Shown one piece after another: positions 18,482 to 59,748 of a DNA stretch of 64,000 nt (position 1 is the first letter of the stretch; every line of letters starts with the position of its first letter). A program made the translations under genes and the position numbers. Source of the DNA: Pseudomonas phage pPa_SNUABM_DT01; the sequence record MW735835.1. One strand, 5' to 3'. The notes under the pieces were generated by a model. It searched no databases. It saw nothing but the letters and a program-made list of their open reading frames with translations, and was not told where the DNA came from.

Positions 18482-18517
18482 GCATAGAGAGCAGCTCCTA
18501 GGAGCTGCTCTCTATGC
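18482..18517. terminator. Bidirectional hairpin GCATAGAGAGCAGCTCCTAGGAGCTGCTCTCTATGC (CATAGAG family).
   Basis: 36-nt perfect palindrome between convergent genes. Confidence 0.55.
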
Positions 18518-18527
18518 TGCTGTGCTG

Positions 18528-45817: not shown

Positions 45818-45841
45818 AGAGGGAGCCCTAGGGCTCCCTCT
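45818..45841. terminator. Hairpin AGAGGGAGCCCTAGGGCTCCCTCT followed by TAGCTTTCTTTTTTCTTTTTTGC; between convergent genes.
   Basis: Palindrome plus T-run (CATAGAG-family variant). Confidence 0.5.
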
Positions 45842-45863: not shown

Positions 45864-46589
45864 TTACGCGATGCGCAGGTTGCTCGGATGCAGACCTTCC
45901 ACCAACTTCTGCTCGACCTTGGCCGCAGCTTCCGCTTTGGTGATCAGACCGTCCTTGTTTGCATCCAGGCCCTTGTTCTGCATGTAGGCTTTGGACTTGG
46001 CGTTCGCTTCGCTGAACAGCACGTAGTCTTCAGGCTTACCGACAGCAACCGGGTAGAGGATGCGCATGTAGACGTCGGAAAGGGTCTGCAACTTGCCTGC
46101 GTAGGGCTTGAAGAAGTTGTAGACGTAGGTCAGCTGTTCTTCAGCGGTCATCTTCAGAAGCTTGGCCACGGTGGTGCCAGCATCCTTAGCGGCCGCATCG
46201 CCGAACTGGATGATGCCGTAGTACGGAGCACCCGCGCCGTTCTTGATGGTCGGGGAGAACGTACCGCCGGTCTCGAACGCCATGCAGGCCATCAACTGAT
46301 CCTGACCCTGCCAGCCCATCTTCAGCTTCTGGGCGATCTCGCCAGTCTTGAAGCAGAAGTCCAGGGACACCCGTTCAGACCACGCAGGAGCCTTGCAGTA
46401 AGCGAAAAGCAGGACACCAATACCATCGGGTGCATTCGACGGTTTGGACATCGTGGAGGCCTTCCTACGGGCGTTCAGGAACGCCCCGTGAGATGCCGGA
46501 CCCCACAGGCCGTCAATGACGCCGGTGTAGAGGCCCATGGCCTTCATGTTGCGCTGAAGTTCCTTCAGCTGTTCCTTAGTTGCTGCCAT
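45864..46589 (-). CDS. Endolysin: N-terminal peptidoglycan-binding domain plus a C-terminal muramidase / GH19-like catalytic domain, 241 aa from MAATKEQ.
   Basis: LQRNMKAMGLYTGVIDGLWGPASHGAF (PG_binding_1 pattern); C-terminal AFETGGTFSP..YYGIIQFGD. Confidence 0.6.
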   Translation of the reverse strand: MAATKEQLKELQRNMKAMGLYTGVIDGLWGPASHGAFLNARRKASTMSKPSNAPDGIGVLLFAYCKAPAWSERVSLDFCFKTGEIAQKLKMGWQGQDQLMACMAFETGGTFSPTIKNGAGAPYYGIIQFGDAAAKDAGTTVAKLLKMTAEEQLTYVYNFFKPYAGKLQTLSDVYMRILYPVAVGKPEDYVLFSEANAKSKAYMQNKGLDANKDGLITKAEAAAKVEQKLVEGLHPSNLRIA

Positions 46590-47226
46590 TGCCAAGGCCC
46601 TCGAGGAAAGTCTGCATGGCCGGATACATGTCACGCAGCTTGGTGAATGGGAGGTTGCTGATCTGGGCGGACTGCGGCTGTTCGATGCCAGTGACCTTCC
46701 AGTCGAAACGCAGGCCCTGCTGGGTCAGCGTCAACGGAGTCGAACTGGTTGCCTCGAACTTGGTGATGTGCACCGCGTTCTGGTAAGACCACTTGGTTTT
46801 CTCCAGCACACGCCACAGTGCTGCCGATGCCACCTGCTCAGCGGACTCCTGAGCGTAGGTCAGCAGGCTCATGGAGTCGGCCAGGACCTTGGCGTTCAGG
46901 AAGTCGTTGATGATGGCGTCTTCCACGTAGAGCATCTTCGGCGTGATGGTGCCCTTGGTGCGGAAGTACAGACGGGAGATCTGCGGACGGTTACGCGGGA
47001 TGTACGGTTGAGCGTTGCCACCTTCGTGAGGGGCATCGGCTTCTTCCGGCCACCACTCGATGGTGTAACCCACGATGGCGTATTGCAGATCGCTCAGGAA
47101 GTTGAAGACCGTGGCTTCCTTGATGCGGCAGTTGGCGCGCAGTTGCACACCGGAGTTGTCGATCAGGCGCAGGCAGCGGAAATGCCCACGATCTGCACCG
47201 GCATAGAGGGGTTGTTCTTCAGCCAC
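46576..47226 (-). CDS. Hypothetical protein, 216 aa.
   Basis: Coupled ORF in the late operon. Confidence 0.45.
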   Translation of the reverse strand: MAEEQPLYAGADRGHFRCLRLIDNSGVQLRANCRIKEATVFNFLSDLQYAIVGYTIEWWPEEADAPHEGGNAQPYIPRNRPQISRLYFRTKGTITPKMLYVEDAIINDFLNAKVLADSMSLLTYAQESAEQVASAALWRVLEKTKWSYQNAVHITKFEATSSTPLTLTQQGLRFDWKVTGIEQPQSAQISNLPFTKLRDMYPAMQTFLEGLGNGSN

Positions 47227-47235
47227 GATGGCCTC

Positions 47236-47826
47236 CTAAAGGTCTTTGACGACGTAGTACTCGTGCAGCAGACTCAGCCGCATCTCTTCCGTCACGTGCG
47301 TCACGCTGTGCTGGATATAGCTGGGGAAGATGTAGACATCACCAGCTTTGGGTGAGATGCGATAGTTGCCGAAATGGAACTGACGCATGGGTTTGGGATA
47401 CCCGCGACATGCGTTACCACGAGGGTCGAACATGTTCAAACCATTTGCCGAGTCCGACGGGTAGCAAATTGCCGACAGGACAGACCCGGGATGGTAATGC
47501 GGATACAGGCCTTCACCGCTTTCGATCCACTTGCCATTGGTCTCGACGTAGAACTCTTCCATGCTGGTGCCGAAGGCATGCTTGGAGAACTCTTTGACCG
47601 CCGGAGTGATCACGTCGTCACGGATCTCGATGATCAGTGGCATGACATCGCGCAGGACTTTCACCTGCGAGGCGTCTTCGCCCTGGGTCATGGTGAACAG
47701 CAGGAAGATCTCTTCTGCGTAGGCTTCCATGTCGAAGCGGTCAGCCACGTTGAAGTGTGCAATCTCGGTTTTCCACGGTTGGATGATTTCCACGTTACGC
47801 TCCATTAACAGAAATGATGCCCTCAT
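47236..47826 (-). CDS. 2OG-Fe(II)-oxygenase-like protein (phage / cyanophage-associated PF13759-type), 196 aa.
   Basis: LYPHYHPGSVLSAICYP .. GDVYIFPSYIQHSV (HxH .. FPS..H.V pattern). Confidence 0.55.
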   Translation of the reverse strand: MRASFLLMERNVEIIQPWKTEIAHFNVADRFDMEAYAEEIFLLFTMTQGEDASQVKVLRDVMPLIIEIRDDVITPAVKEFSKHAFGTSMEEFYVETNGKWIESGEGLYPHYHPGSVLSAICYPSDSANGLNMFDPRGNACRGYPKPMRQFHFGNYRISPKAGDVYIFPSYIQHSVTHVTEEMRLSLLHEYYVVKDL

Positions 47827-48226
47827 CCGTGCACTCGAGCAGACAGTACCGGACAGTCTGCGGAGCCCAACCCGAATTGATCCAATCAGGGATCTCCTTT
47901 AGACGCTCAATAATGGCGTCGTAGGTGGCTTGGTCTTGGTCGTAAGTGACGAAGTAAGGATCTTGACCCAGGAACAGGTCCTCATCACGCAAGGTCTCGT
48001 AAATGTCAATCCCGAAGAGTTCATTCAGCTTGTAGGCGTAAATGATCGCTACCGAGTAAGACTTGGCCGGGTAGTAAAGCGGGAAGGTCGCCTCTTTGAA
48101 GTAGTGCAGGGCGTTTTCGATCTTCTCCTCGCTCTCGACCATCTCCATCAACTCGAAGTCGTCGGTGTGGTCTCGGACAAGTTGGTTGTACAGGCGCTGG
48201 TTGTCTTTATACGGATGGGAACTCAT
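47795..48226 (-). CDS. Hypothetical acidic protein, 143 aa.
   Basis: ORF overlapping both neighbours (32 and 20 nt). Confidence 0.45.
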   Translation of the reverse strand: MSSHPYKDNQRLYNQLVRDHTDDFELMEMVESEEKIENALHYFKEATFPLYYPAKSYSVAIIYAYKLNELFGIDIYETLRDEDLFLGQDPYFVTYDQDQATYDAIIERLKEIPDWINSGWAPQTVRYCLLECTDEGIISVNGA

Positions 48227-48644
48227 AGTTGCTCACAAACGAGATGCGCAACTCATCATGAGGTGACCGCTCAACATGATGCAACAGTCGAGCTGAGAAG
48301 ATGACCAAGCGGCCTTCCTTCGGGTGCACACGGTGATGGTTGCCTTGTTGATCGTGGATCACCAATGGTCCTTCGGCATCCAGTAGGTAGAGTACCGAAG
48401 TGAACACATGAGGCAGGTGATCATGAGGGGTGAGGCCTCCCGGACCGATGTGCACGTGGTTCGCACAGATGACCAAGTCCTGGAGTTGCAGATGCTGCTG
48501 CGTCAGGGGCAGGATTGTTTCGTCCGCCCACTTGATCAGGTCTTCATTGATCACGACATCTTTGTCGATCTCGCAGAAAGCCTGATCTACGACCCAGTCG
48601 GGGACAGGTATCCCTTCAACCTGGAAGAACAAAGGCTCGTTCAT
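48207..48644 (-). CDS. Second 2OG-Fe(II)-oxygenase-like paralog, 145 aa from MNEPLFF.
   Basis: GLTPHDHLPHVFTSVLYL .. GRLVIFSARLLHHV; ATGA overlap with the upstream radical-SAM gene. Confidence 0.5.
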   Translation of the reverse strand: MNEPLFFQVEGIPVPDWVVDQAFCEIDKDVVINEDLIKWADETILPLTQQHLQLQDLVICANHVHIGPGGLTPHDHLPHVFTSVLYLLDAEGPLVIHDQQGNHHRVHPKEGRLVIFSARLLHHVERSPHDELRISFVSNYEFPSV

Positions 48645-49666
48645 ACCAGCACGTCCCATTTATTTTTCATGTTGACAAGGCAGGTATCGTGCTTGAGATG
48701 ATTCATGACCGCATGGATATCGCCACGCGCACAACGATCCAAATGCAAGCACTTCCCACACTCAGGCGAATGACTGCGCTGCACCAACTGCTCGAAGTAC
48801 ATCTCTTCTTCGAACTGCTCGAGGTTGATCCCAATCCATGGCTTCTTCAGTTCGAAGTCTGGCGCAAAGATGGGGAACTTCTCGATCAAGGTAGGTGTGT
48901 AGTACAACTTGCCTTGTCGGTAGGTAGCCTCCAGACTGTCCGTCTTGGGCTTGATCAGGAACCGGTTGTACTGGGTATCCTTGCAGGCCTGAATGACGTC
49001 ACAGAAGCGACTGAAGGCGTTCAGGAATGCTTGCCGGTTGACGAGGTCATCGAAGCCCTTACGCACATGCGGAAACACGTACTCGACCAAACGACGCATG
49101 CCGAATTCCAGCTCATGGATTTGCTGATTGGTCTCCACGGAGAAGTTCTCAATGGAGTCGCCAGTCATGTTCACCGTCAGGTACAGCAGCTCGAACTTCA
49201 CGTCCGGCAGGTGGTCAATCACGTACCGGACACGCTGACGGATCAAGTCCTGGTGCTTAGGGTTGTTGATACTCTTGAGCGGGAAGGGTGTCGCCAAGGT
49301 GAAAGACTTGCCTTTCATCAGGACGTTGATCTTCTCGCAGAGCACATCGAGCCCTGTGTCGTCTAACAAGGCCAAGGGCAATACCACGCTGTCAAAGCGT
49401 TCAGCGAGTCCCTGGATCAGAGCATGTTCCAGGATACCGACACTCGCCTTAGAGGCAATGACGTCCACCGGACCAATGGTGAACTCCCGCAAGCGGTAGC
49501 CTTCCTGCTTCATGTCATCGACCAGATCCAACAGATCCCGTCGATCTTTGTTGAACGGACCGGGATCGAAGTCCCGGTCTACCATGCAACCCACGCAGTG
49601 GTACTTACAGCCTTGAAGAATCTCAAGCGTCAGGTTGAACGCTCTGTTCGGAACCAGTGCTGACAT
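48641..49666 (-). CDS. Radical SAM enzyme 1, 341 aa.
   Basis: LEILQGCKYHCVGCMVD (CxxxCxxC) at residues 20-27; C-terminal CGKCLHLDRCARG. Confidence 0.75.
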   Translation of the reverse strand: MSALVPNRAFNLTLEILQGCKYHCVGCMVDRDFDPGPFNKDRRDLLDLVDDMKQEGYRLREFTIGPVDVIASKASVGILEHALIQGLAERFDSVVLPLALLDDTGLDVLCEKINVLMKGKSFTLATPFPLKSINNPKHQDLIRQRVRYVIDHLPDVKFELLYLTVNMTGDSIENFSVETNQQIHELEFGMRRLVEYVFPHVRKGFDDLVNRQAFLNAFSRFCDVIQACKDTQYNRFLIKPKTDSLEATYRQGKLYYTPTLIEKFPIFAPDFELKKPWIGINLEQFEEEMYFEQLVQRSHSPECGKCLHLDRCARGDIHAVMNHLKHDTCLVNMKNKWDVLV

Positions 49667-50672
49667 ATTGGAGCCCTACCAGGCAGTCTTTTATTTTCAT
49701 GCGTTCCATGATGTTGATGATGCCCTTCTCACTGCAACTGGACATGTAGACGCAGGACATGCATGGCGTATCTGCCAGATAGTCCAGGGCGCGTTCTAGG
49801 GCCTTCTGACGGGTGTTCAGAAGATTCTCCATAGTCCAGGGGCGGGGAATGACGAAGTCGTCTTCTAGGAAGGGACAATCGTCTTTGAGGAAGGGTACCC
49901 AGTACAGCTTGCTGTCGGTGTACAGCAAGTTCACCATAGTGCCGGTGTGGTAGCAGAGATCGGGGTTACGGCGGCGCTCATCCTCACCCGACAGACCCGA
50001 GTAGAACTGGGTGATGCGGTGAGACATACGCTTGATGTTCTGGGCGACCATCAGGTCCTTCACTGGCACACGCCCGTACGGGATGTTCAGGATGTCGTCC
50101 TTGTCCACCGGGAAGTCGACCTTGAAACCGTTCTTCATCATCTCGTCGAAGTCTTCGCCCACGGTGTCCGTGGTGCAGTTGACCACAAAGCCTGCTTCGT
50201 TGAGGTAGGCCTTTTTCAAGTGCTCCTTCACGAAGTCCAGCTTGGAGACGATCATCTTGCTGAACTTGTCCGACTTGAAGAACGATGGCGCAGCTGGCAT
50301 CAGGAACCGCACAGCCTTGCCGGGTATGGCCTCGTCGATCTCTTCGCACATGACCTTGTACAGGTCCATGTTCTTCTCAAGGAACGCCGCGTTGAAGGTG
50401 ACCTGATGAAACCCCTGAGCCATCTCACGGAACACCGGATGTTCCATGACCTCAGCCACGTTGTCCGCAGACATGTAGTCGGTCGGGCCGATCCCCATGT
50501 CGAACGCCACGTAGCCATTGGCCACCATTTCGTTGACCAAGGCAGCCAGTTTAGGAATGTCATCGACATCCCCTCCCAACTCACGGTCAATCATGCAGCC
50601 GGCGCAATGGTTCGCGCAACCCCGGAAGATGTCCAGGGTGATTTCCAGCCGTTGACGATGTTGTACGATCAT
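49623..50672 (-). CDS. Radical SAM enzyme 2, 349 aa; paralog of enzyme 1.
   Basis: ITLDIFRGCANHCAGCMID; C-terminal CMSCVYMSSCSEKG; overlaps enzyme 1 by 44 nt. Confidence 0.75.
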   Translation of the reverse strand: MIVQHRQRLEITLDIFRGCANHCAGCMIDRELGGDVDDIPKLAALVNEMVANGYVAFDMGIGPTDYMSADNVAEVMEHPVFREMAQGFHQVTFNAAFLEKNMDLYKVMCEEIDEAIPGKAVRFLMPAAPSFFKSDKFSKMIVSKLDFVKEHLKKAYLNEAGFVVNCTTDTVGEDFDEMMKNGFKVDFPVDKDDILNIPYGRVPVKDLMVAQNIKRMSHRITQFYSGLSGEDERRRNPDLCYHTGTMVNLLYTDSKLYWVPFLKDDCPFLEDDFVIPRPWTMENLLNTRQKALERALDYLADTPCMSCVYMSSCSEKGIINIMERMKIKDCLVGLQYVSTGSEQSVQPDA

Positions 50673-51601
50673 TTCTTACGTCCAGCCCAATTGTCCAATA
50701 GACCCCGGAAGCCGTTACAGGAATTCTTCAGGGAGGTGACTTCACGCAAGTGTTCGGAAAGGCAGTTGCCAAAGTACGGGCAGGAGGAGCAGAAGGGATT
50801 GTCTTGGACCCGGTCGCGTTCAAAACCACACCAGTCCAGATACCCTTGTACTCCATCGACCGTCAGGAAATACTCACGGTCGTCCTTGTCGAACTCCAGT
50901 ACTGCAAAATCCCCAGAGGGCGTGATGTAGATGTGGTCGTCGCTGAATGCATTGCGCTTACCTTCTACCGCCTCTTTTACTTGGGTCTCGTTCTCGAAGT
51001 AGAACTTGCGTGCAGGATGCTTGATCACTGCCCATACAAACTCTTCGAATTCCTTGAACGACACCTCGTGCTCGTTAGCCTGGTTGGTGCTGTACGGCTT
51101 GATCTCACACCCCATGAGGTGCGGGAACATGTTCATCGTCTCGACGTAATCGTCAGGCGTTGTCTTATCGAGGAACGCACGACTGGCCAGCGTCAGCACG
51201 TTGAAGCGCTGACTCAGCAGGAACATGTTGTTCAACACCAGCTCATGTTTCTCACGGGCTTCGAAGTCGTACGACACCGAGATCATGAACGCCTTGTCAT
51301 GGACGATGTCTGGCACGTGAGACAGGTTGGTCACCAGCACGATGTCAGTGATCCCACGGGTCAACAGAACCTGCTTGACGCCAATGAGGTACTCTTGAGG
51401 CAGCACCAGCACCTCACCACCGTAGATGTCGACATGACCAATTTCGAAGTGCTCCATCAGAGCATCGAGCCGATCAGCAAAGACATCCACAGGCAACAGA
51501 GTGCGGTCGCTTAACTGTTGCTCGGTGAGGTAACAAAACGAGCACCGGAAGTTGCAGTAGTACCAGGGGTTGAAGCTGATGTTGAGGCTGGGTTTGGCCA
51601 T
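50669..51601 (-). CDS. Radical SAM / SPASM-domain enzyme 3 (anSME / peptide-maturase-like), 310 aa.
   Basis: NPWYYCNFRCSFCYL; C-terminal CGFERDRVQDNPFCSSCPYFGNCLSEH Cys cluster. Confidence 0.8.
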   Translation of the reverse strand: MAKPSLNISFNPWYYCNFRCSFCYLTEQQLSDRTLLPVDVFADRLDALMEHFEIGHVDIYGGEVLVLPQEYLIGVKQVLLTRGITDIVLVTNLSHVPDIVHDKAFMISVSYDFEAREKHELVLNNMFLLSQRFNVLTLASRAFLDKTTPDDYVETMNMFPHLMGCEIKPYSTNQANEHEVSFKEFEEFVWAVIKHPARKFYFENETQVKEAVEGKRNAFSDDHIYITPSGDFAVLEFDKDDREYFLTVDGVQGYLDWCGFERDRVQDNPFCSSCPYFGNCLSEHLREVTSLKNSCNGFRGLLDNWAGRKK

Positions 51602-51780
51602 GATTGCAACGATTCCAGGAAGCGGCGTTGGTAGGGATGCAGGGGCTTGGTGTGACCGAGCGCCATCTCGGCAAAATCAGCGAGGTTGTCTCGGCAACGC
51701 TTGACGACTACTTTCTTGAGGACTTCGGGGATCTCAAGCTTGAGTTCGTATCCCGGAGGGAAGAATGCCATTTGATCCAT
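51511..51780 (-). CDS. Small ORF, 89 aa, between radical-SAM genes; its 3-prime 91 nt overlap the enzyme-3 start.
   Basis: ORF only; begins 3 nt after the enzyme-4 stop. Could be a precursor or accessory peptide, or spurious. Confidence 0.3.
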   Translation of the reverse strand: MDQMAFFPPGYELKLEIPEVLKKVVVKRCRDNLADFAEMALGHTKPLHPYQRRFLESLQSWPNPASTSASTPGTTATSGARFVTSPSNS

Positions 51781-51782
51781 GA

Positions 51783-52874
51783 TTAACCTTTCGCGATGAG
51801 TTGGACGGATTCGTCCTCGTAAGGGGTCGGTGTCAGATGGGCCGACATGCCATTGATCTCGATGATCTTGGCTGCCTGACTCTTCATCTTCCGACAGTGG
51901 TGTTCGGTCAAGCCAAACCGCTTGGTGTCCGAGATGGTCTTACGGCAACCATTGCAGATGGCAAACATCGGGCAGATGTAGCAGGATTCCTTCATCGACT
52001 GAAGGTGTTCCTGATCCCGTAACGGCAGGACCAGTTCCTTGCCAGACATCTCGGTCTCGAAGTCAATCGGGAACGCCATGTCGTCAGCAAAGGCACCGCA
52101 GGAGAAGTAATGACCACCGGGCTGCAAGGTACGGATACCTTCATCGCAGTTGCGAGCCAGAGGACACGTGGTGTGCTTGCCTTTAAGGCGCTTGGCCATC
52201 TGTTTGGTGTTGTACTCCCACTCCATCAGACCGGCTTCGTAGATCTGGATGTAGTGGCCGTAGATATCGGCTTGGGTGAAGAAGTTGTTCTCACTACCCA
52301 TCACCGTGCCGCGGTTGTTCACTTCAGGCCCAGAGGCCACGACATGGTTCACCTTGGCCTCGACACCCATCTCCTTGGCCAGCCTGACCGTATCCAAGAC
52401 AGTGTGCTCGTTGTCCTTGTCGATCACCGCAATGAAGTCCAAGCGGTAGCCGATGCGTTCAAAGAACAGGTCCGAGACCTTACGGAAATCCTCTTCAGTG
52501 AACGGCGTACCATCACCCTTCAGGCGTTTGTCGCCGTATTGGAACGACGTGGTGATGCCCAGACGTTCATGCTTGAACAACTCTTCCCACATCTCGGGCT
52601 TCTTGTAGAAAGCCCAGAGGTTAGAAGTGAAGCTGATGGATGCATCGCAGTTGTTGCGGTCCAGGATGGCGATCATGTCCCAGTAGTACTGGGGCGGCAT
52701 CATCAGAGGATCGCCACCGTTGACGATGATGGTGTTGGTATCGGGGAAGCGCTGAATGAAGCGTTCGATCTGATCCAGCTCAACGATGTCCTTGGGGTCC
52801 TCGGACAGGTAAGTACTGGAGCAGAACGTGCACTTGAAGTTACAGGCTACCGTTGGCTTGACGATGAGATCCAA
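51783..52874 (-). CDS. Radical SAM / SPASM-domain enzyme 4, 363 aa.
   Basis: VKPTVACNFKCTFCSS; C-terminal CPLARNCDEG .. SCGAF .. CYICPMFAICNGC (two auxiliary-cluster-like motifs). Confidence 0.8.
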   Translation of the reverse strand: MDLIVKPTVACNFKCTFCSSTYLSEDPKDIVELDQIERFIQRFPDTNTIIVNGGDPLMMPPQYYWDMIAILDRNNCDASISFTSNLWAFYKKPEMWEELFKHERLGITTSFQYGDKRLKGDGTPFTEEDFRKVSDLFFERIGYRLDFIAVIDKDNEHTVLDTVRLAKEMGVEAKVNHVVASGPEVNNRGTVMGSENNFFTQADIYGHYIQIYEAGLMEWEYNTKQMAKRLKGKHTTCPLARNCDEGIRTLQPGGHYFSCGAFADDMAFPIDFETEMSGKELVLPLRDQEHLQSMKESCYICPMFAICNGCRKTISDTKRFGLTEHHCRKMKSQAAKIIEINGMSAHLTPTPYEDESVQLIAKG

Positions 52875-53028
52875 TTGCCTGCTCCTGAGGTTGAGTGGTC
52901 CAAAGGTTGAAGTAATCGCGCTTGTCGATCTTGTCCGGGTTCTCGATAGTGAGTTGTTTCAGCTTCTCGGCTATTTCTTTTTCGGACATCTTGAGAAAAT
53001 TACGGGGAGGTACGGCCATGGCAGTCAC
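52840..53028 (-). CDS. Small ORF, 62 aa (MTAMAVPPRNFLKMSEKEIAEKLKQLTIENPDKIDKRDYFNLWTTQPQEQ..); overlaps enzyme 4 by 35 nt.
   Basis: ORF only; located between two SPASM maturase-like genes. Confidence 0.3.
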   Translation of the reverse strand: MTAMAVPPRNFLKMSEKEIAEKLKQLTIENPDKIDKRDYFNLWTTQPQEQAIGSHRQANGSL

Positions 53029-53116
53029 CCTCTTTAAAGAAAAGATTCATAAGAAAGGTTCCGCATGTTTTAAGACACACGGCATAAAGGCCCGGTCTAG
53101 CCGGGCCCCTATGTTG

Positions 53117-54118
53117 TCACGCAAGGATCACCTTGAACATGGCCTTGATCGAGCAGTCTTTCGACTTCTCGCCCAGGACCGTGTCATGCAGGAAACACCG
53201 TAGGCCACAGCGCTGATAGAACTCGCAACTGAAGCACCCGTAGTGTTCCACAAATGTCACTTCTGCGTTGTCCTTCGCGATCAGGCCTTCCTTCTCATCG
53301 AGGATTGCATCTTTGCCCGCTTCAGACCAACAGGTACTGATCACCCCATCCTTGTTGATGATCTTGGTGGAACGGCACGTGGTCTCGTTGACGACGTTAC
53401 GTTTCCAGTCCTTGATCGGATAGGAGTTCGGGTACTTGTCGTTCAGCTTGATGTACAGCTGACTGATCAGGTCTTCGTCGGGTTGATGATAGGCGTACAG
53501 CTGACTGGGGATGTAATGATCGAAGTACACGTCGTACTTGTCACAGAGCCAGACGAACTCGTCACCTTCCTTGCCATCGAGGAAGATTTGGATGTTCTGC
53601 TTGGTGATCACCACGTTGACCGTCTGAACGTACTCGCCCAGGACTTCGAGGTTCTGGAAGAACAGTTCACGCTGAGCACCATTGAAGCGCCCAGCAGGGT
53701 CGTAGGACGTGGCTAGCCAAACACGTGGGTCGATCAGCCGGAGCCGTTCGATCAGGTGCTTGACGCGGTCGGTGTTGTGGTAGACGAGATTGGTACCGAA
53801 GACCAACTTGACATCCTTGAAGTGTTCCAAGCACATCTTGCCGACTTGGTAGTACGCCTCGAAGACGTCATCACCAATCTCGTTCATGAACAGTTCACCG
53901 CCGGTGATGTTGACCACCATAGCCGTGTCTGGGTGCGTGGTTGCCAAGAGCTTGGCAGCCTTCTCGATCATCAGATCCCCGTCGAGACCCACTTTGGAAT
54001 CATGGTCCTGGTGGCAGAACGAGCAACGCATGTTGCACAGCTCGAACAGGATCAGGTGGGCTTCTTTCCACTTGCCCTTCTTGTCACGCAGGATGTCTAC
54101 AACAGGGATCAGGTCCAT
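53117..54118 (-). CDS. Radical SAM / SPASM-domain enzyme 5, 333 aa from MDLIPVV.
   Basis: ILFELCNMRCSFCHQD; C-terminal CWSEAG .. CFSCEFYQRCGLRCF. The track start is a TTG 6 nt upstream; the ATG shares one nucleotide with the upstream stop (TAATG). Confidence 0.8.
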   Translation of the reverse strand: MDLIPVVDILRDKKGKWKEAHLILFELCNMRCSFCHQDHDSKVGLDGDLMIEKAAKLLATTHPDTAMVVNITGGELFMNEIGDDVFEAYYQVGKMCLEHFKDVKLVFGTNLVYHNTDRVKHLIERLRLIDPRVWLATSYDPAGRFNGAQRELFFQNLEVLGEYVQTVNVVITKQNIQIFLDGKEGDEFVWLCDKYDVYFDHYIPSQLYAYHQPDEDLISQLYIKLNDKYPNSYPIKDWKRNVVNETTCRSTKIINKDGVISTCWSEAGKDAILDEKEGLIAKDNAEVTFVEHYGCFSCEFYQRCGLRCFLHDTVLGEKSKDCSIKAMFKVILA

Positions 54119-55173
54119 TACCAACGCGCTCCGGTGAGAGCCGCCTTCAGGCCTGCCAGGTCAGTGGTCAGGATGTGGCGGATCAGGTTCTCGTCGTACT
54201 TGCCGGTGTCACGCATCGCCAGGGCAATACGCATCTCGCCAGCAAACATGTCGGTCACACGACGCAGGCAGTTCTCGGGTTCACGCATGTTGGCTTCGTC
54301 GTTCAGCAGCGAGAGGATCTGAGCAGCACGGCGGGACGAGGATTCGTCTTCGAGCTGGTGCATCAGTTCAACGGCCTCCATCAGCATGCCCTTGATCCAG
54401 ACGTCGGTCGGACGGAAGTCGTACAGGCCCGGACGGAGCAACTGTTGAGACGCCAGGTGCGGCAGATTGAGGCAACCTTCGAACACGGTCGGTGCGTTCA
54501 GCAAGGTGTCGACGTCGGCGCCGGCCAGTTCCCAGTTCTCGGGACGGGTCAGGTGACGAGCCCAGACGTCCATGGCATCGTGGGCGTTCGACAGTGCGAT
54601 ACGACGCAGGATGTTCTTGGTGGTCTTCGGGATCTTGCCGACACGGGCATCGGTACGCAGGCGAGCAATGTGCCACTCCAGCGAGAGGGCTTCCGGGTTA
54701 CGGAGTACCAGCTCGTTCATGGCCTCTTGCAGCGGTTCGTCCTTGTCGAACAGCGCCTGCACGACCTTGGTGTCGATCTTGATGCTGGACAGCACATCGA
54801 CGCGAGGTTCGCCCATGGCGACGATCAGGCTGTTGAAGGTGGCCTTCTTGCACACGAAGAACCAACGGAAGTTCTCGAAGTCGATCTTCGGGAACAACGC
54901 CTTGATCAACATGGCGTACAGGCGGGTATAGGTGTCGCTGTCGCAGTACACCATGACCTTGTCCTTGCTCTCGAGCGCTGCACCGAAGACCTCGGTGAAT
55001 TGCTCGGGTTCGAACTGGTCGAGGCTCTGGGCGAAACCCAGCTGCACACCGACTTCTTCGAACTCGCCCGGGCTGTGTTTCCAGCCGATCTGGGGCGAGA
55101 TGGTAATGACGTTCTTCGAGCGGTCAATCCGCAGTTCGGAGTCGACGTACGCCTGGTTAAACAGATGGTACAT
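54118..55173 (-). CDS. Hypothetical protein, 351 aa, within the radical-SAM cluster.
   Basis: Coupled ORF; no recognisable motif. Confidence 0.5.
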   Translation of the reverse strand: MYHLFNQAYVDSELRIDRSKNVITISPQIGWKHSPGEFEEVGVQLGFAQSLDQFEPEQFTEVFGAALESKDKVMVYCDSDTYTRLYAMLIKALFPKIDFENFRWFFVCKKATFNSLIVAMGEPRVDVLSSIKIDTKVVQALFDKDEPLQEAMNELVLRNPEALSLEWHIARLRTDARVGKIPKTTKNILRRIALSNAHDAMDVWARHLTRPENWELAGADVDTLLNAPTVFEGCLNLPHLASQQLLRPGLYDFRPTDVWIKGMLMEAVELMHQLEDESSSRRAAQILSLLNDEANMREPENCLRRVTDMFAGEMRIALAMRDTGKYDENLIRHILTTDLAGLKAALTGARW

Positions 55174-56032
55174 GTTCGATACCTTTCAGGACATTGAGGT
55201 TGGACTGGAGTTCCGCACGTCCAGCTTGCTCGAGTCGAACCAGCTGCTCGGGTTCGCTCAGCGACAGCAGACCCAGGAAGTAGGGGTTGTGCTCGCTATC
55301 GAAGAAGGCGAACAGGTTCTTGCCGGCGAAGCAGTACTCGTTGAAGAACATCTTGTTCCAGCACCAGTCTTCTTCCGGGATGTCTTGCATCAGCACCGGG
55401 AACAACGGGTGTTGGATGAGCTTCACGAAGTTCAGGCCCAGCAGGCTTTCACCTTCGATCTCGGGGTAGTTGGCTACCTGATCCTTCAGCGTGGCGTAGC
55501 TGTGCAGGGCGTAGACCGGGACCATGCAGACGTTCTGCATCCAGGTCTCGAGGATGTCGCGATGCTCCTCGATGAACGGGACGGGATTGAACGGCAGCAG
55601 GTAAGGCTTGCCCGACGCAGCCAAAAGCAAGTTGATGGCCAGGTCTTCCATCTCAGGCAGATTCACCATGGAGGTGATGTAGAGATAGTCCTTCAGCATG
55701 TCCAACTTGGCTTCCAGCGAGGAGAACTTGATCTCGCACTTGATGTCCAGGTTGGTTAGGTAGGTGATCAGCACACTGCCTTTGTACTTGCTGTTGTCGT
55801 AGTCGACGATGAACTTCACGTTCTCCGAGAACTTACGCTTGAGCGTCAGCATCGGGATCGGAACGGTCACTTCGAGCACGACCAACTTGTCCCGCCACTC
55901 CTGCTCTTCTTTCAAGAGCAGTTTGTATTCCAGCTTCATGCCGAGAGACATGCTGTTCAGGCGCTCTCGGTCTTTTCTCGGATTGCCGGTCAACTTGTGC
56001 CGTTTGCGGAACTCGTCGAGTTGCTTCTCCAT
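55157..56032 (-). CDS. Hypothetical protein, 291 aa, within the radical-SAM cluster.
   Basis: ORF overlapping the downstream gene by 17 nt. Confidence 0.5.
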   Translation of the reverse strand: MEKQLDEFRKRHKLTGNPRKDRERLNSMSLGMKLEYKLLLKEEQEWRDKLVVLEVTVPIPMLTLKRKFSENVKFIVDYDNSKYKGSVLITYLTNLDIKCEIKFSSLEAKLDMLKDYLYITSMVNLPEMEDLAINLLLAASGKPYLLPFNPVPFIEEHRDILETWMQNVCMVPVYALHSYATLKDQVANYPEIEGESLLGLNFVKLIQHPLFPVLMQDIPEEDWCWNKMFFNEYCFAGKNLFAFFDSEHNPYFLGLLSLSEPEQLVRLEQAGRAELQSNLNVLKGIEHVPSV

Positions 56033-56044
56033 GGTGAACTCCTA

Positions 56045-56581
56045 TTACCGGCGGCCGCGAGCAGAGTGACAGCTCGTGTGGCAGCTGGTGTGACAGATGG
56101 TATTTTGCAGGGTGAGGACCTGTGCACGGCAGGCATTCTGATAAGCGCTCAGGAGAGCGTTACATGCGTTGTTATAGACGTTGAGGTCCATGTTGGTGCC
56201 TTCGGTCAGAGCGCCGAGGTTAGCACCAGAGGCGAAATCCACTCCATAGACCGTATGACCAACAGCGGTCACATCGAAGATCAGTTCCTGACCAACAGCG
56301 TAATGGGTACGCCAGATCAGGACACGGCACGTCCGAATACCACTGAATAGGTTGGCCACGTAACGAAGAACCTGGGTGGCTTGCAGTGCTTGCGGCTCAC
56401 CGGCGGTGAATTGCTCGGTAGCGAACAGTGCGCCTTTGCCACCGGTAGTGCCAGCGAACCAGCCTGGCAGGCCATTCGGCGGTACGTTGTTGGTACCCCA
56501 GGCGATACCGGCGTTCATGTTGTTGCTGAGAATCGTGTTGGCGTTGGCAGCCAGTCGACTCCGACGAATCACTTCGGTCAT
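56045..56581 (-). CDS. Protein of 178 aa with a Gly/Ala/Thr/Asn-rich body and a C-terminal tandem Cys motif ..NTICHTSCHTSCHSARGRR; candidate radical-SAM substrate.
   Basis: Starts 1 nt after the stop of radical-SAM enzyme 6; three tandem CHTS/CHS units at the extreme C-terminus. Confidence 0.55.
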   Translation of the reverse strand: MTEVIRRSRLAANANTILSNNMNAGIAWGTNNVPPNGLPGWFAGTTGGKGALFATEQFTAGEPQALQATQVLRYVANLFSGIRTCRVLIWRTHYAVGQELIFDVTAVGHTVYGVDFASGANLGALTEGTNMDLNVYNNACNALLSAYQNACRAQVLTLQNTICHTSCHTSCHSARGRR

Positions 56582-56582
56582 A

Positions 56583-57623
56583 TCACACCTTCAGAATCAG
56601 ATTGGTCTGTTGCGTTCGACCGGAGAGGTAACGCAGGGTGTTCTTGAGACCCCCACAGCGACCCTTCTGCCAAGGCAGTCGGTGACAGTCGCCCCCACAC
56701 AGATCAAACACGTCGCACGTAATGCACGTATCGCCCCAAGTCAGTTCTTTGGCTTGTTGCTCCACCCGGCCATCCGAAATAAGGAAAGCGTCGACACCAT
56801 CCTCCAAGCGTGCATGGTGCAGCTTAGCGGCAGCGTTAGGGCAACCAGACAAAGAACCGTCCGAGTTGATGGTCACCAGGTTCTGCTCGCAGTTGCGGCA
56901 GTTGGTGTCCACCTTGACGACGTTCTTCTTGAGCTTTTCCTCGAGGATGTCGAGGGTCTTGATGCGCACACGTGGCTTGCGTTCTTTGTAGCGCAGGTAC
57001 AGCGCAAGGTACCAGTTGTCCTGGTCCTCATTGTTAGGGAAGATCTCGGGGTTATCGACAGCACTGCCATCGTTGGTCAACCGTTCCAAGGACGCTTCAT
57101 CCACTGCAAAGCTGTCCAACTGGTCCATCAGCCAATCGGGCGACATGGCGATGAGTTGCTTGCTGACCGACACCTTGACATTGATGCCCACGCCGTGGGA
57201 CTTCAGGGTCTCGAGGTTCTTCTTCCATAGCTGGAACTGCTTGTCGTTGCTCCAGCGAATCCAGTGGTCCCAGCTGGTCCCAATGAATGCACCGAAGTAA
57301 TCCTTGATGAAGGCGATGTGCTCATCCGTCAACTTGAAGGTCAGGTTGCTGGCGGCACACATCGACACGTTCGGCAGATCCACGAAGTGATCAGCGAAAC
57401 GCTTGAGCTTTTCCAACGGGACCAGGAACGGTTCCCCACCATGGAACTCCATGTGGTAGTGCGTGCTCTTGGGGTACTTGGACATGAAGTCCTTCACCCA
57501 ATCGCTGACCTGGTCCGGATCGAACGGGGTCTTATCCCCGGCCTTGCCGTTGGTGAAACAATGCTGACAGTTCAGATTGCAAGTGCCCGTGGTCTTGACA
57601 TAGATGGTTTTGTAGGCGTTCAC
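56583..57623 (-). CDS. Radical SAM / SPASM-domain enzyme 6, 346 aa.
   Basis: VKTTGTCNLNCQHCFTNG; C-terminal CRNCEQN .. GCPN .. CITCDVFDLCGGDCH. Confidence 0.8.
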   Translation of the reverse strand: MNAYKTIYVKTTGTCNLNCQHCFTNGKAGDKTPFDPDQVSDWVKDFMSKYPKSTHYHMEFHGGEPFLVPLEKLKRFADHFVDLPNVSMCAASNLTFKLTDEHIAFIKDYFGAFIGTSWDHWIRWSNDKQFQLWKKNLETLKSHGVGINVKVSVSKQLIAMSPDWLMDQLDSFAVDEASLERLTNDGSAVDNPEIFPNNEDQDNWYLALYLRYKERKPRVRIKTLDILEEKLKKNVVKVDTNCRNCEQNLVTINSDGSLSGCPNAAAKLHHARLEDGVDAFLISDGRVEQQAKELTWGDTCITCDVFDLCGGDCHRLPWQKGRCGGLKNTLRYLSGRTQQTNLILKV

Positions 57624-58177
57624 AGCTTCGCTTCCAAAAAGAGTTCCAAGCCGAAACTAATCATCAGGGAACTGTCGACATTGATGGCCTGGTGAAGTTC
57701 ACCACGCGGAATATGGATGCTGTCCCCGGCAGTGAGTTCGATCTCGCCATCAGGGAACTTGAAAACTTTACGGCCTTCGACCATGTAGATGACGACGTCA
57801 TCTAGGTCTGTGTGCATCGGGAAGCTGACGCCCCCTTTCGGCGAAATGAAAAGATGAGCGCTCACTGGCCCCACGTGTCCGAAATGCGCAGCAAGCCGCG
57901 CACAGTTCTGGAACATGGTGGCATTGAGGCGCTCGATCCCTTCGATCTTGACCGGGCAATCGCTGTTCTCCAGGAAGTCAGACTGACTGTAGAGGTCGAA
58001 CGATTGCGCGTTCTTGATGTATTTCACCAGGCACTGCTCGTACAGATGCGGGCTTGACAGCAGAAGGTCCACATCGAGAAGCTCAGGAGTGATCCCCTCG
58101 AATTGAAAACCAAGACGTTCGAACATGTTCAAGCCCTCTCTGAAGTTGGTGTCTATAGGATTGCCTAGAAGGATCAA
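57620..58177 (-). CDS. Cupin / JmjC-like Fe(II)-oxygenase-fold protein, 185 aa.
   Basis: SFPMHTDLDDVVIYMVEGRKVF .. GDSIHIPRGELHQA (HxD .. H triad in a cupin-like spacing); ATGA-coupled on both sides. Confidence 0.55.
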   Translation of the reverse strand: MILLGNPIDTNFREGLNMFERLGFQFEGITPELLDVDLLLSSPHLYEQCLVKYIKNAQSFDLYSQSDFLENSDCPVKIEGIERLNATMFQNCARLAAHFGHVGPVSAHLFISPKGGVSFPMHTDLDDVVIYMVEGRKVFKFPDGEIELTAGDSIHIPRGELHQAINVDSSLMISFGLELFLEAKL

Positions 58178-59748
58178 TCCTGCCAGAGCGGCGGCCAGAC
58201 CTGCTGCCAGACACTGTTCACGGAGGCGTACAGACGGCCACCGGCGTTCAGCAGGGCAATGGTCGGATCGCTACCCAGGTTCGGGTCATTAGCCCCCGGA
58301 GCAGCGAAGCCGGTCCAGGTAGCCGGCCACAGTTGGCGCCAGGCACCAGAGATGTAACCTTGCAGGGTGCTACCCACTACACGAAGCGAGGTGTTCTGCG
58401 AGACGTTGATCTTCACATAACGCGAATCGTGGTCACCCGACTGCACGTGATCGTACATCCCGCCTGCGGTGAGCAGGTAGGCATCGGAGTTCAGCGTACG
58501 GGAACGAGTGATGGCGTTCGGCAGGTTGCCGAGGCCCACTTGTGCCTTGGTCGTTTGGTGCGGGTTGTTGAGGTTGGACACGTGGGAGTTGATCAGGTTA
58601 CCGGCGATTGCGTCGATGGCCTGCTTGGTCCGCAGAGGTGTCATGAACCGGTCATTGAGAACACCGGCTACCGCTTCGGCTTGGGTGGCGGTCTGGAAGT
58701 TGTCTACCAGGCCCAGGCCCACCTGTGCTTTCGTGGTGTTGTGCGGGTTGTTCTTATCGTTGACGTGGTTCTGGATGAGGGTACCGGCGTGGACCATGAT
58801 GGCCTGGTAAGTGCGCTGCGGCGTCATGAACGCGTTAGCAGCAGTACCGGCTTCGGCTTGAGCCTGGGTCGCTGTCGGGAAGTTGTCCACGCTACCGAGC
58901 CCGACTTGGGCCTTGGTGGTATTGTGGGGGTTGTTCTTGTCCGCGATGTGCGTGTCGACGGCTTCATTGGCCAGACGAGCAGCAAGCACTGCCACCAGAC
59001 TCGGGGTCATGTACTTGTTGTTCACGACACCGGCCAGCGCTTCTGCGTTGGTGGCGATACCGTAGTTCTCGACCGAACCCAACCCTACCTGCGCCTTGGT
59101 GGTGCGGTGTGGGTTGTTGAAGTCGTTCAGGTGCGCATCGACTTTGTCATCCAGAGCATCGATGTTCGCCTGGAGCTGGTCACGGATGAATTGCATCTGT
59201 TGACGCAGTTCGTCGTGAGACGCCTCATCACCCACCAGGATGGCATTGGTGATGCGTTCCAGCTGCCATACGACGTATTCCCAGCCATAGCTGTCGCCGA
59301 TGTCGTGGATGTGCGGAGCCGGCGGGTAAGCCGTCGGACGACCGATGATCGAACCCCACTTGATGGGGCGTTCATCGAGGTCCAGCTCAGCGATGAGGTC
59401 AGCCAGGGCACCCAGGTTCCAGGAGTACTCGCCACCGACGACTTGGTAGTCCATGCGGACTGCAACCGGGGCTTGTACCTTCAGAACGACGGCACACTGC
59501 ACGTCCTTGCCGCTGCGCAGAGAAGCTTGAGCGAATGGTTGAGCGAGCACGTAGTCGTCGACCGGAATCAACGGCTCACCGGTGTCGTCGTTGACCAGGA
59601 CCATGCTCTCAGTGTAGAACGGGCCAGCCTTGGGAACGAAGACCCGCTCGTTGTTGGCGGAGATCTCTCGGCGTTCCCCGACGATCTTGTTCGTCGGCGA
59701 GGTACCCTTGAGATCAAGAGGGTACTGAATGATCGGTGGTACTGGCAT
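58174..59748 (-). CDS. Tail fibre protein B, 524 aa, with about 3.5 tandem ~60-aa repeats (NNPHxTTKAQVGLGSVxNF..ATxAxAxAG..FMTP).
   Basis: Repeats at residues about 211-415. N-terminal domain YPLDLKGTSPTNKIVGE..FVPKAGPFYTESM is paralogous to the fibre A N-terminus. Confidence 0.7.
   Translation of the reverse strand: MPVPPIIQYPLDLKGTSPTNKIVGERREISANNERVFVPKAGPFYTESMVLVNDDTGEPLIPVDDYVLAQPFAQASLRSGKDVQCAVVLKVQAPVAVRMDYQVVGGEYSWNLGALADLIAELDLDERPIKWGSIIGRPTAYPPAPHIHDIGDSYGWEYVVWQLERITNAILVGDEASHDELRQQMQFIRDQLQANIDALDDKVDAHLNDFNNPHRTTKAQVGLGSVENYGIATNAEALAGVVNNKYMTPSLVAVLAARLANEAVDTHIADKNNPHNTTKAQVGLGSVDNFPTATQAQAEAGTAANAFMTPQRTYQAIMVHAGTLIQNHVNDKNNPHNTTKAQVGLGLVDNFQTATQAEAVAGVLNDRFMTPLRTKQAIDAIAGNLINSHVSNLNNPHQTTKAQVGLGNLPNAITRSRTLNSDAYLLTAGGMYDHVQSGDHDSRYVKINVSQNTSLRVVGSTLQGYISGAWRQLWPATWTGFAAPGANDPNLGSDPTIALLNAGGRLYASVNSVWQQVWPPLWQD
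58503..59118 (-). repeat. Coding tandem repeats (about 180-nt units) inside tail fibre B.
   Basis: Near-identical NNPHNTTKAQVGLG blocks; they also generate the spurious plus-strand ORFs at 58508..58810 and 58883..59065. Confidence 0.6.

Follow-up and report, generated by a model that had tools for sequence, protein, structure and literature searches.

Gene content of the cassette

The window (the whole 64,000-nucleotide stretch analysed here) comes from Pseudomonas phage pPa_SNUABM_DT01, a phiKZ-like jumbo phage with a genome of 265,520 bp. It carries a row of minus-strand genes in which six radical S-adenosylmethionine (rSAM) enzymes, here called E1 to E6, a cupin and two oxygenase-like proteins accompany a 178-amino-acid (aa) protein with a Cys-rich C-terminal tail. 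This tail protein (56045..56581) is 100% identical to PA10_00065 (gp065) of pPa_SNUABM_DT01 and consists of a domain (residues 1-163) and the tail itself, whose codons (residues 163-178, C-H-T-S-C-H-T-S-C-H-S-A-R-G-R-R) occupy 56048..56095. Directly upstream of the gp065 gene lies E1 (56583..57623), an rSAM/SPASM maturase, and just upstream of E1 lies a JmjC/cupin-type oxygenase (57620..58177) that is a conserved cassette member. The conserved cassette protein u291 (55157..56032) is nearly always found just downstream of the tail protein. Comparative evidence makes it probable, in our judgement, that this cassette matures the C-terminal 16 residues of gp065, (Cys-His-x-Ser)x3-Arg-Gly-Arg-Arg, as part of a virion protein.

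The row continues with the cassette protein u351 (54118..55173) and the rSAM/SPASM enzymes E2 (53117..54124) and E3 (51783..52874), followed by E4 (50669..51601), an rSAM enzyme with one 4-Cys auxiliary motif. E5 (49623..50672) and E6 (48641..49666) are divergent rSAM-like enzymes and paralogues of each other. Further downstream are the 2-oxoglutarate (2OG)-Fe(II) oxygenase-like protein 2OG-150 (150 aa; 48207..48659), the conserved cassette protein u143 (47795..48226), a second oxygenase-like protein, 2OG-196 (196 aa; 47236..47826), and u216 (46576..47226). An earlier reading made from the letters of the DNA (hereafter the sequence-only reading) had described the six rSAM genes as consecutive. 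However, three non-rSAM genes stand between E1 and E2, and small open reading frames (ORFs) lie in the E2/E3 and E3/E4 intervals. The gene junctions are mostly 4-nt to 44-nt overlaps or gaps of at most 12 nt, and the ATGA 4-nt overlaps and the single 44-nt overlap (E5/E6) reported earlier are indeed present.

A 242-nt gap after E2 splits the gene row. It contains a GC-rich hairpin, GGCCCGG-ctaga-CCGGGCC (53089..53107), directly after the E2 stop codon, then TTTAT and an AT-rich spacer, and a small ORF of 59 aa (52840..53019, ATG at 53019) with a Shine-Dalgarno-like AAAGAGGG in front, which is probably the annotated gp061. The hairpin, as judged from its sequence, is a possible terminator or processing site. 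The earlier statement that no terminator intervenes is therefore not strictly true. Given the hairpin, the gap and the fact that the phage transcribes with RNA polymerases of its own (its genome paper reports multisubunit enzymes of a virion and a non-virion kind), a single late operon is no more than a possibility. A second small ORF, s89 (89 aa; 51511..51780), overlaps the start of E4 by 91 nt, and its status is uncertain because its conservation is limited to close relatives. The 59-aa and 89-aa ORFs were considered as precursors of a peptide made on ribosomes and modified after translation (RiPP) and rejected, having homologues in close relatives only and no Cys-rich core.

Upstream of the cupin are two genes for tail-fibre-like proteins. 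Fibre 1 (59817..62210; 797 aa) has NPHxxTKAQVGLG repeats, matches PHROG 2163/13857 (tail or virion protein) and is homologous to RSF1 ORF066; among cassette loci it is present in close relatives only. Fibre 2 (58174..59748; 524 aa; PHROG 2163 at 1e-139) is homologous to RSF1 ORF067, annotated as 'virion structural protein'. Both fibres are context and not conserved cassette members. The sequence-only reading had named the repeat-rich fibres as possible targets of modification. This is unlikely, and they were rejected as the primary target, because the fibre family is absent from most cassette-bearing contigs and occurs in close relatives and RSF1 only. Just beyond the fibre genes, an 87-aa PAAR-motif protein is encoded at 63695-63958 (-; PF05488, 54.5 bits), which places the cassette in a spike-tip, baseplate and fibre neighbourhood.

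At its other end the row closes with a lysin-like (cell-wall-hydrolase-like) gene (45864..46634) that is not a conserved cassette member. Its product, previously called the endolysin, has no Pfam match. It matches C-terminal regions of PHROG 4928 and PHROG 196 'baseplate hub', and its endolysin match is weak; its sequence resembles the lysin domains of baseplate-hub or large tail proteins, and it may be either an endolysin or a virion lysin. A gene for an R2K-clade ATP-grasp peptide-ligase-like protein (45072-45809, +; PF18299, 108 bits) converges on this end of the row, from which it is separated by a strong GC hairpin and T-run at 45818-45841. It was considered as a cassette member and rejected, as it shows no linkage to the cassette in other loci.

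The window also codes for a 746-aa phiKZ-type major head protein, with at most 35% identity to other jumbo-phage counterparts, and for a ribonucleotide reductase, a polymerase and large baseplate or virion proteins. The genome paper on pPa_SNUABM_DT01 lists "six radical SAM genes" with a generic role only. As a bare observation these genes are already published; the interpretation given here is absent from the literature searched. A megablast of 48207-58177 against a 50,697-record phage collection returned no match, but the phage's own record is apparently missing from that collection and the result is no sign of novelty.

The tail of gp065 and its genomic linkage

The C-terminal end of gp065, ...ICHTSCHTSCHSARGRR, follows the pattern C-H-x-S-C-H-x-S-C-H-x-x-R-G-R-R-stop. 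Its counterparts are RSF1 ORF071, ending in ...VCHSSCHSSCHGSRGRR, and Atu_ph07 gp170, ending in ...FCHSSCHASCHNSRSRR. Identity between gp065 and the RSF1 and Atu_ph07 homologues is 24-27% (15 sequences from three isolated phage lineages), and in those 15 sequences C163, H164, S166, C167, H168, C171, H172, R175, R177 and R178 are invariant. The same ten positions from C163 to R178 are invariant in 93 homologues retrieved with a hidden Markov model (HMM), in an alignment with an average column identity of 26%. The consensus of 154 unique tails is V-C-H-[SAT]-S-C-H-[ST]-S-C-H-[GS]-S-R-G-R-R-stop. An exhaustive profile search of 1.84 billion representatives found 769 clusters of the gp065 family at 50% identity. 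No Pfam domain was found in this family, gp065 matches no NCBIfam target-peptide model, and all source names are 'hypothetical' or 'uncharacterized'.

AlphaFold2 predicts gp065 as a confident alpha/beta domain (residues 1-163; mean predicted local distance difference test score 89.9, predicted template modelling score 0.84) with a low-confidence tail. No match to the fold of the N-terminal domain was found in the PDB. A Foldseek comparison with BFVD located a domain of this type in A0A8S5USJ8, A0A8S5USJ7 and A0A8S5USV2 (E about 3e-4 to 7e-4), three 504-660-aa proteins of one uncultured myovirus, Myoviridae sp. ctijX18, and the domain can therefore belong to larger proteins that are presumably structural.

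A degenerate DNA pattern for the tail was used to scan one-genome-per-species bacteria and archaea as well as IMG/VR. It was found in 32 stretches of the bacterial and archaeal genomes and in at least 120 IMG/VR viral contigs. Metagenome-assembled genomes (MAGs) of Bdellovibrionota account for 18 of the 32 genome matches, several of them on Mb-sized contigs; the others include a few marine bins, one Methanobacteriota archaeon MAG and a Dysosmobacter contig. Taken together, the cassette occurs in soil, compost and marine sources, in jumbo and small phages and in Bdellovibrionota. Searches with the window proteins (phmmer) showed that nearly all tail-pattern loci carry the same syntenic enzyme families, usually in the order cupin-E1-tail protein-u291-(u351)-E2-E3-E4-u143-2OG. 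One 40.8-kb contig has exactly this order, placed after a 2134-aa DUF4815 protein and a Gp8-like baseplate protein, and the cassette is repeatedly placed after giant tail or baseplate genes.

The recurrence of gene order in related phages, proposed by the sequence-only reading as a check, was found, in over 100 viral contigs of all sizes and in Bdellovibrionota genomes. That reading did not recognise the arrangement from described phages. It is, however, not unique to pPa_SNUABM_DT01: its six rSAM genes are in the genome paper and the cassette is widespread. Among isolated phages it is carried by the Ralstonia/Burkholderia Chiangmaivirus group and by Atu_ph07/Phosso, and the papers on these phages merely list its genes.

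The tail protein and E1 are closely linked. Of 83 evaluable loci with 'long' tail proteins, 68 have E1 directly upstream of them, and u291 follows directly downstream in 64 of 77. In the reciprocal direction, relatives of E1 were found in 391 viral loci, and the best 80 of these were taken for a test in which the 76 with at least 700 nt of downstream DNA were evaluated. A tail-family gene stands next to E1 in every one (76/76); the tail has three repeats in 73 of them, is degenerate in two and is missing in one.

Such an invariant Cys/His spacing is typical of metal sites, and the tail may simply be a metal- or Fe-S-binding motif, either a Zn/Fe site at the tail tip or a ferredoxin-like donor for the rSAM enzymes, with no covalent modification; the rSAM enzymes would then have another target, such as the large fibre or baseplate proteins nearby, part of the host envelope or a small molecule. 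Metal binding by His/Cys is known from phage spike tips and PAAR proteins, a PAAR gene is nearby, and the cassette always lies close to giant tail genes. However, E1 and tail protein adjoin in 76 of 76 loci, a hallmark of an rSAM maturase paired with its target. The Ser and Arg of the tail are also invariant and are not required for metal binding, no particular fibre family co-occurs with the cassette, and a ferredoxin role is ill-suited to incorporation into the virion. We regard an unmodified metal-binding tail as the most serious rival explanation and, on balance, as unlikely.

Some loci depart from the common form. In a variant architecture (L035, L063, L112, L157 and others), two tandem tail proteins of ~127 aa (N-terminus ...QLRTFDK...) directly follow a giant protein (2893 aa, ~2900) and are themselves followed by 4-6 E5/E6-type genes, with E1-E4 nearby. 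The presence of so many E5/E6-type genes beside paired short tail proteins indicates that this enzyme type also tracks the tail. A published marine T4-like genome has been described as carrying '12 radical SAM genes', and the variant architecture probably accounts for it.

Several individual loci are described here for completeness. Rare degenerate tails beside an intact E1 occur in the viral contigs L180, L222 and L187; they comprise a tail of two repeats only, CHSNCHINRSRR, a tail whose third His is changed to Asn, CHTSCHSNCNCNRGRR, and a 317-aa family member without the tail. The Dysosmobacter segnis BX15 assembly contains a 4268-bp contig (L020) that encodes, at 3907-4266, a tail protein with eight CHxx repeats, CHSSCHSNVVCHTSCHDSCHSNVVCHASCHDSCHSARGRR, so the repeat number of the tail can vary. 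This gene adjoins E2, u351 and u291 genes very close to those of the window (E2 2e-141), and the contig is probably phage DNA within a bacterial assembly. In the Bdellovibrionota MAGs (L005-L031), the cassette is on chromosome-sized contigs (2.8 Mb in L016, 2.4 Mb in L031), with several extra unassigned ORFs of ~330-365 aa nearby and, in L025, a B12-binding rSAM gene; no phage hallmark genes were found by Pfam within 8 kb per locus. In the RSF1/FLC6 group, an HNH endonuclease and two dihydrofolate-reductase (DHFR) genes lie between the E2 and E3 homologues (18497-19786 of RSF1, L001), and a GIY-YIG nuclease separates fibre 2 from the cupin. These genes look like mobile insertions and not pathway members.

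Data on the location of the protein are available from the virion proteome of Atu_ph07, in which gp170 was found with 8 unique peptides and 35% coverage (PMC6102473, Supplementary Table S5). This protein is the gp065 homologue, the numbering having been checked by the predicted masses of gp170, gp176 and gp177. With a mass of 31.9 kDa, gp170 spread over gel bands 1-9 with its maximum in band 1, at the top of the gel; on the same gel, proteins of 75-140 kDa peak in bands 1-2 and those of about 30 kDa in band 8 (PMC6102473). A 31.9-kDa protein that peaks at the top of a boiled sodium dodecyl sulfate (SDS) gel points to a covalent adduct or to an oligomer that withstands SDS and heat. The rSAM enzymes gp165, gp168 and gp171, the cupin gp172, the u291 homologue gp169 and gp166/167 are missing from this proteome (PMC6102473). 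According to the authors, gp170 opens one of three large structural gene clusters, CDS 170-215.

Enzyme families of the cassette

All six rSAM proteins have the N-terminal CxxxCxxC, the motif that holds the SAM-cleaving [4Fe-4S] cluster (E1 C15/C19/C22, E2 C30/34/37, E3 C11/15/18, E4 C16/20/23, E5 C19/23/26, E6 C20/24/27), and in family alignments these Cys residues are invariant or at least 90% conserved. This bears out the earlier description of six minus-strand ORFs with this motif. A GGEP-type motif is conserved in E1 (GGEP), E2 (GGE), E3 (GGDP) and E4 (GGE); where it sits, E5 and E6 have a conserved G-P-T/x-D variant (GPTD in E5), and their SAM-binding motif is only partly that expected. 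Against Pfam Radical_SAM (PF04055, gathering threshold 29.5 bits), E3 (53.5 bits) and E4 (32.2) score above the cut-off, E1 (27.2), E2 (25.0) and E6 (20.9) below it, and E5 has no match. None of E1-E6 matches the Pfam SPASM model PF13186. PHROG 1802 'radical SAM' is matched by E1-E4 at 1e-31 to 1e-53 (E2 3.5e-31). In hhalign comparisons of family alignments, E1-E4 are mutually linked (probabilities 96-99; E2 vs E1 99.4), E5 and E6 are linked at 100, and E5 is linked to E2 at 92. For the E5/E6 family profile, no solved relative was found by sequence.

The C-terminal Cys residues divide the enzymes further. In family alignments E1, E2 and E3 have 8, 7 and 8 conserved C-terminal Cys, which are full SPASM patterns. 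E4-E6 have four each, in a CxxCx5C...C arrangement (E4 C271/C274/C280/C295, E5 C304/C307/C313/C330, E6 C303/306/312/329), and lack the seven-Cys SPASM motif C...C...CxxCx5Cx3C...C; with four auxiliary Cys they would hold at most one auxiliary cluster, of a twitch-like or partial SPASM kind. The sequence-only reading had counted four SPASM enzymes (its numbers 3-6) and two with shorter clusters. Numbered from the low-coordinate end this agrees with the alignments, except that E4 is also short and the count becomes three full and three shorter. The SPASM model TIGR04085 is matched by 29 of 32 E1-family members at 1e-5 or better, and the window's own E1 reaches 25.7 bits (cut-off 27). E3 is the most conserved cassette member, with 54-58% identity to its RSF1 and Atu_ph07 homologues (tblastn), and E6 is related to RSF1 ORF074.

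The best NCBIfam match of E1 is anSME (TIGR03942; 50.9 bits, E 1.2e-13, nearly full length; cut-off 349), followed by full-length alignments to YhhB (NF041707; 49.5 bits, 2.8e-13; cut-off 445) and FxsB (TIGR04269; 44.1 bits; cut-off 370). PapB, AmcB, DynA, DarE and HxsB are its other neighbours. The PapB model is matched by all 32 E1-family members (best 3e-15) and the 'CXXX-repeat target' maturase model TIGR04115 by 15 of the 32 (best 1e-9). For E3, anSME is the second-best NCBIfam match (38.0 bits; cut-off 349). The nearest PDB structures to E1 by profile are 8vpo, CteB, anSME, ChlB and the GDGT-macrocyclic archaeol synthase 7tol. Scores this far under the curated cut-offs place E1-E6 in the peptide/protein-maturase clade and in no characterised family; E1, as far as its sequence tells, belongs to that clade among the rSAM-SPASM enzymes.

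Relatedness to RiPP maturases raises the possibility that the modified tail is cut off and released as a bioactive peptide or cofactor, as for PQQ, mycofactocin or methanobactin, acting on the host or on competitors, with the N-terminal domain serving as a large leader. The enzyme set does resemble multi-enzyme clusters with several rSAM enzymes and 2OG hydroxylases, and the C-terminal position of the tail fits that of a core peptide. However, the rSAM motifs of E1-E4 begin within residues 11-37, so these enzymes have no N-terminal extension and, like anSME and the triceptide synthases, no N-terminal recognition domain. No Pfam match to PqqD/RRE or to a peptidase was found in any cassette protein, nor could a protease, RRE/PqqD domain or exporter be recognised in the cassette. 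The supposed leader is a conserved folded domain whose Atu_ph07 homologue was detected in virions, and the tail is at the extreme C-terminus, ending in RGRR, with no conserved cleavage motif upstream. A classical leader-peptide RiPP, as the sequence-only reading had allowed, is unlikely because E1-E4 lack an RRE-type extension, PqqD matches are missing and the 160-aa folded 'leader' ends up in virions; release of the tail as a peptide or cofactor is quite improbable overall.

Published annotations of phage rSAM genes point in another direction. Such genes have so far been annotated as Fe-S 'auxiliary metabolic', DNA-repair or MoaA/QueE-like, and the genome paper on this phage and those on marine viral genomes follow this view, in which the cassette would serve metabolism, DNA repair or Fe-S economy; a nucleotide or DNA hypermodification, for instance of the 7-deazaguanine type, is an alternative. 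The rSAM genes do give weak N-terminal matches to QueE (E about 1e-3 to 3e-4), MoaA, NrdG and viperin models, and DHFR genes lie within the RSF1 module. These matches span only the generic cluster-binding N-terminus, however, and the best full-length matches are to SPASM peptide maturases; queuosine-, MoaA- and NrdG-type readings were rejected for this reason. No model of QueC, QueD or FolE matched any cassette ORF, as the sequence-only reading had already noted. The DHFR genes come with the HNH endonuclease insertion and in the RSF1 group only, and a gene order shared with a conserved protein tail and with structural genes of the phage tail is at odds with a metabolic role. We consider metabolic and DNA-modification roles very improbable. 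Membership in a defence system was also rejected, PADLOC having given only generic viperin-like matches to the N-terminus.

The three remaining enzymes carry the features expected from the earlier description of a cupin and two 2OG-oxygenase-like genes. The cupin scores 37.1 bits against Cupin_2 (cut-off 27.2) and 33 bits against JmjC_2 (cut-off 22), is present in 72 of the loci compared, and has an HxD...H triad (H122-x-D124...H162) and a K137 that are at least 90% conserved in 66 homologues. By these sequence features it is classed as a JmjC-type Fe(II)/2OG oxygenase. Against PF13759 (gathering threshold 27 bits), 2OG-196 scores 46.6 bits and 2OG-150 28.0 bits, the latter also exceeding the cut-off of PF13640 with 27.9 bits. 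In 2OG-196, which is related to RSF1 ORF080/082 (tblastn), H110, H112, H173 and R183 are conserved.

Among the other proteins, u351 has no Pfam or PHROG match. It has phmmer matches in 27 loci, always between u291 and E2, and its N-terminus is similar to that of RSF1 ORF072 as judged by eye. u143 matches PHROG 20737 at 7e-39, has homologues in RSF1 ORF085 and Atu_ph07 gp149, and occurs in 24 loci, usually after E4.

Proposed maturation of the tail and comparison with known systems

The sequence-only reading had suggested a modification system acting on a structural protein, with the product of 56045..56581 as one candidate. This suggestion is supported by the clade of E1, the near-obligate linkage of E1 and tail protein, the invariant tail and the virion location in Atu_ph07. 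The best reading of the system is an anSME-, triceptide- or HXS-like maturation of a tail-associated virion protein. From the comparisons above we infer that the enzymes all act on one substrate, the tail of gp065, and that the product is located in the phage tail or baseplate.

In the proposed scheme, gp065 would be made with a folded 160-residue domain and a disordered tail. E1, with two auxiliary Fe-S clusters, would bind the tail and start radical chemistry there; it is proposed to act first because its gene adjoins that of the tail protein. E2-E4, the variable E5/E6 type, the JmjC-type cupin and the 2OG oxygenases would then add cross-links, oxidation and hydroxylation, and u291, u351 and u143 would be non-catalytic helpers or unknown enzymes. 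The matured gp065 would be built into the virion near the fibres or baseplate, probably in an SDS-stable or covalently linked form. This location is suggested because the cassette follows giant tail genes elsewhere and lies here just downstream of the PAAR gene and two fibre genes.

Several kinds of chemistry can be considered for the tail. Three-residue cyclophanes linking His-C2 to Ser-C-beta may form on the three H-x-S motifs, for which HaaB, HtkB and YhhB offer a precedent. Cys thioethers may form, as by PapB and CteB, and the Cys of the terminal C-x-x-x-R may be converted to formylglycine, as by anSME; an aldehyde of this kind could explain covalent high-mass species. The JmjC-type cupin may hydroxylate His or Arg, an idea based on the ribosomal oxygenases of the JmjC_2 family.

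Several points weigh against maturation of the tail. Direct chemical evidence for tail modification exists in no phage, and the invariant Cys/His tail could simply bind metal, unmodified. The need for 4-12 rSAM enzymes on 16 residues is unexplained. Every HMM score to characterised maturases is far under the family cut-off, so that no specific chemistry can be transferred, and u291, u351 and u143 have no recognisable fold or motif and no detectable relatives of known function. The migration of gp170 is taken from a single published table and is explained equally well by an SDS-resistant non-covalent oligomer, and RSF1/RSL2-type annotations do not mark the tail-protein homologue as a virion protein.

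A further-reaching proposal is that the rSAM enzymes and oxygenases make of the (Cys-His-x-Ser)3 tail a new structure, dense in cross-links or resembling a cofactor, which would either staple the protein covalently into the tail or baseplate or form a metal-binding or DNA-escorting device, used by phages and predatory Bdellovibrionota to cross the Gram-negative envelope. We offer this extension as speculative and unlikely. The resulting structure might also be a phage-side counterpart of the HxS-repeat 'periplasmic gatekeeper' defence discussed below. If true, it would amount to a protein modification of a new class and to the first case of virus particles matured by rSAM enzymes.

On the comparative evidence, phage rSAM genes form a single conserved machine whose probable substrate can be named, a virion protein with an invariant 16-residue tail. 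Should the tail prove to be modified, no earlier case of a viral structural protein matured by rSAM enzymes after translation would precede it; it would probably also yield new cross-link chemistry on Cys-His-x-Ser motifs and be a new determinant of infection. With one enzyme and a tag of 16 residues, the system is tractable for tests. The maturation of short Cys- or His-containing motifs by rSAM/SPASM enzymes is known; a cassette of phages and Bdellovibrionota devoted to the tail of a virion protein is new in the literature searched, and it holds a real prospect of unknown chemistry and of a further step in virion assembly. Searches for phage rSAM-SPASM, for Bdellovibrio with rSAM and for CXXX-repeat systems, whose coverage was incomplete, found no description of it.

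Among known systems, anSME (TIGR03942, PDB 4K36-39) resembles E1 in having an rSAM core and a SPASM domain with two auxiliary clusters, without a leader-recognition domain. Its target is a short motif with Cys within a full-length protein and not a leader-bearing peptide, which is a likeness to the proposed maturation of gp065, and the last repeat of the tail, C-H-x-S-R, has the C-x-x-x-R spacing of the sulfatase motif C-x-P/A-x-R, though without the Pro/Ala. Unlike anSME systems, the cassette has no sulfatase, the tail has three repeats with invariant His and Ser, and E1 is accompanied by several rSAM enzymes and oxygenases, is encoded by a phage and yields a virion protein.

The triceptide synthases (YhhB, FxsB, HaaB, HtkB, ChlB) are likewise SPASM rSAM enzymes without an N-terminal recognition domain. 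HaaB, HtkB and YhhB link His-C2 to the C-beta of the residue two positions on (HAA, HTK, HNR). Triceptide substrates use aromatic-x-x motifs, and gp065, next to E1, has three His-x-Ser motifs. Unlike in triceptides, an invariant Cys stands before every His of the tail, the substrate would be a virion protein of 178 aa, and a cross-link, with its change of -2 Da per motif, is here proposed only. PapB, CteB and the CXXX-repeat family (TIGR04115) are SPASM maturases that form thioethers from Cys in short repeated motifs, and the gp065 tail is itself a C-x-x-x repeat; the 'CXXX-repeat target' family is defined bioinformatically. The tail differs from PapB substrates in having no Asp/Glu acceptor, and E1 differs from CteB in having no RRE domain.

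The clusters for polytheonamide and other proteusins show that several rSAM enzymes and Fe(II)/2OG hydroxylases can converge on one short ribosomal segment. These pathways involve leader peptides, cobalamin-dependent methyltransferases and epimerases, and the peptide is released. The cassette, in contrast, has no recognisable leader or protease, and its product would stay on a virion protein.

The last comparison is with the HXS defence (Nat Commun 2026, PMC13128918), in which two rSAM enzymes mature HxsA, whose sequence holds five His-x-Ser repeats. The modification, of +8 Da, is site-specific on a Ser-His-Arg-Ser-Ser (SHRSS) motif, and matured HxsA blocks phage DNA entry in the periplasm (PMC13128918). 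HXS is 99.7% confined to Pseudomonadota and abundant in Pseudomonas (PMC13128918). The cassette, on the evidence of its sequences, is not a member of HXS. E1 and E2 score 26.2 and 19.4 bits against HxsB (TIGR03978, cut-off 370 bits), E2 and E3 score 21.0 and 25.5 bits against HxsC (TIGR03977, cut-off 268 bits), and no cassette protein matches HxsD or any other Hxs model above noise. HxsA is processed at its N-terminus and bears a peptidoglycan-binding domain, and its repeat as described contains no Cys; the gp065 domain has no Pfam match. Unlike HXS, the cassette has 4-12 rSAM enzymes and oxygenases.

The parallel nevertheless invites the idea of a counter-defence or superinfection device, in which the matured basic His-x-Ser tail would act in the periplasm during DNA ejection, shielding the DNA from HxsA-like gatekeepers or excluding other phages by mimicry of HxsA. 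By analogy, HXS sets rSAM-matured basic His-x-Ser repeats against phage DNA entry and is abundant in Pseudomonas (PMC13128918); the tail has three H-x-S motifs and RGRR, and the protein is virion-borne in Atu_ph07. The resemblance is by analogy alone, however, with E1 at 26 bits against an HxsB cut-off of 370. Neither a peptidoglycan-binding domain nor HxsD is present, the invariant Cys has no counterpart in the described HxS repeat, and the cassette also occurs in marine phages and Bdellovibrionota, well outside Pseudomonadota. A counter-defence role is, in our estimate, extremely improbable. In the preferred reading, as in HXS, rSAM enzymes would mature a protein with tandem His-x-Ser repeats rich in basic residues. 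HXS shows that rSAM-modified H-x-S repeats act at an envelope-crossing step, and this newly described defence may provide a mechanistic parallel to the cassette.

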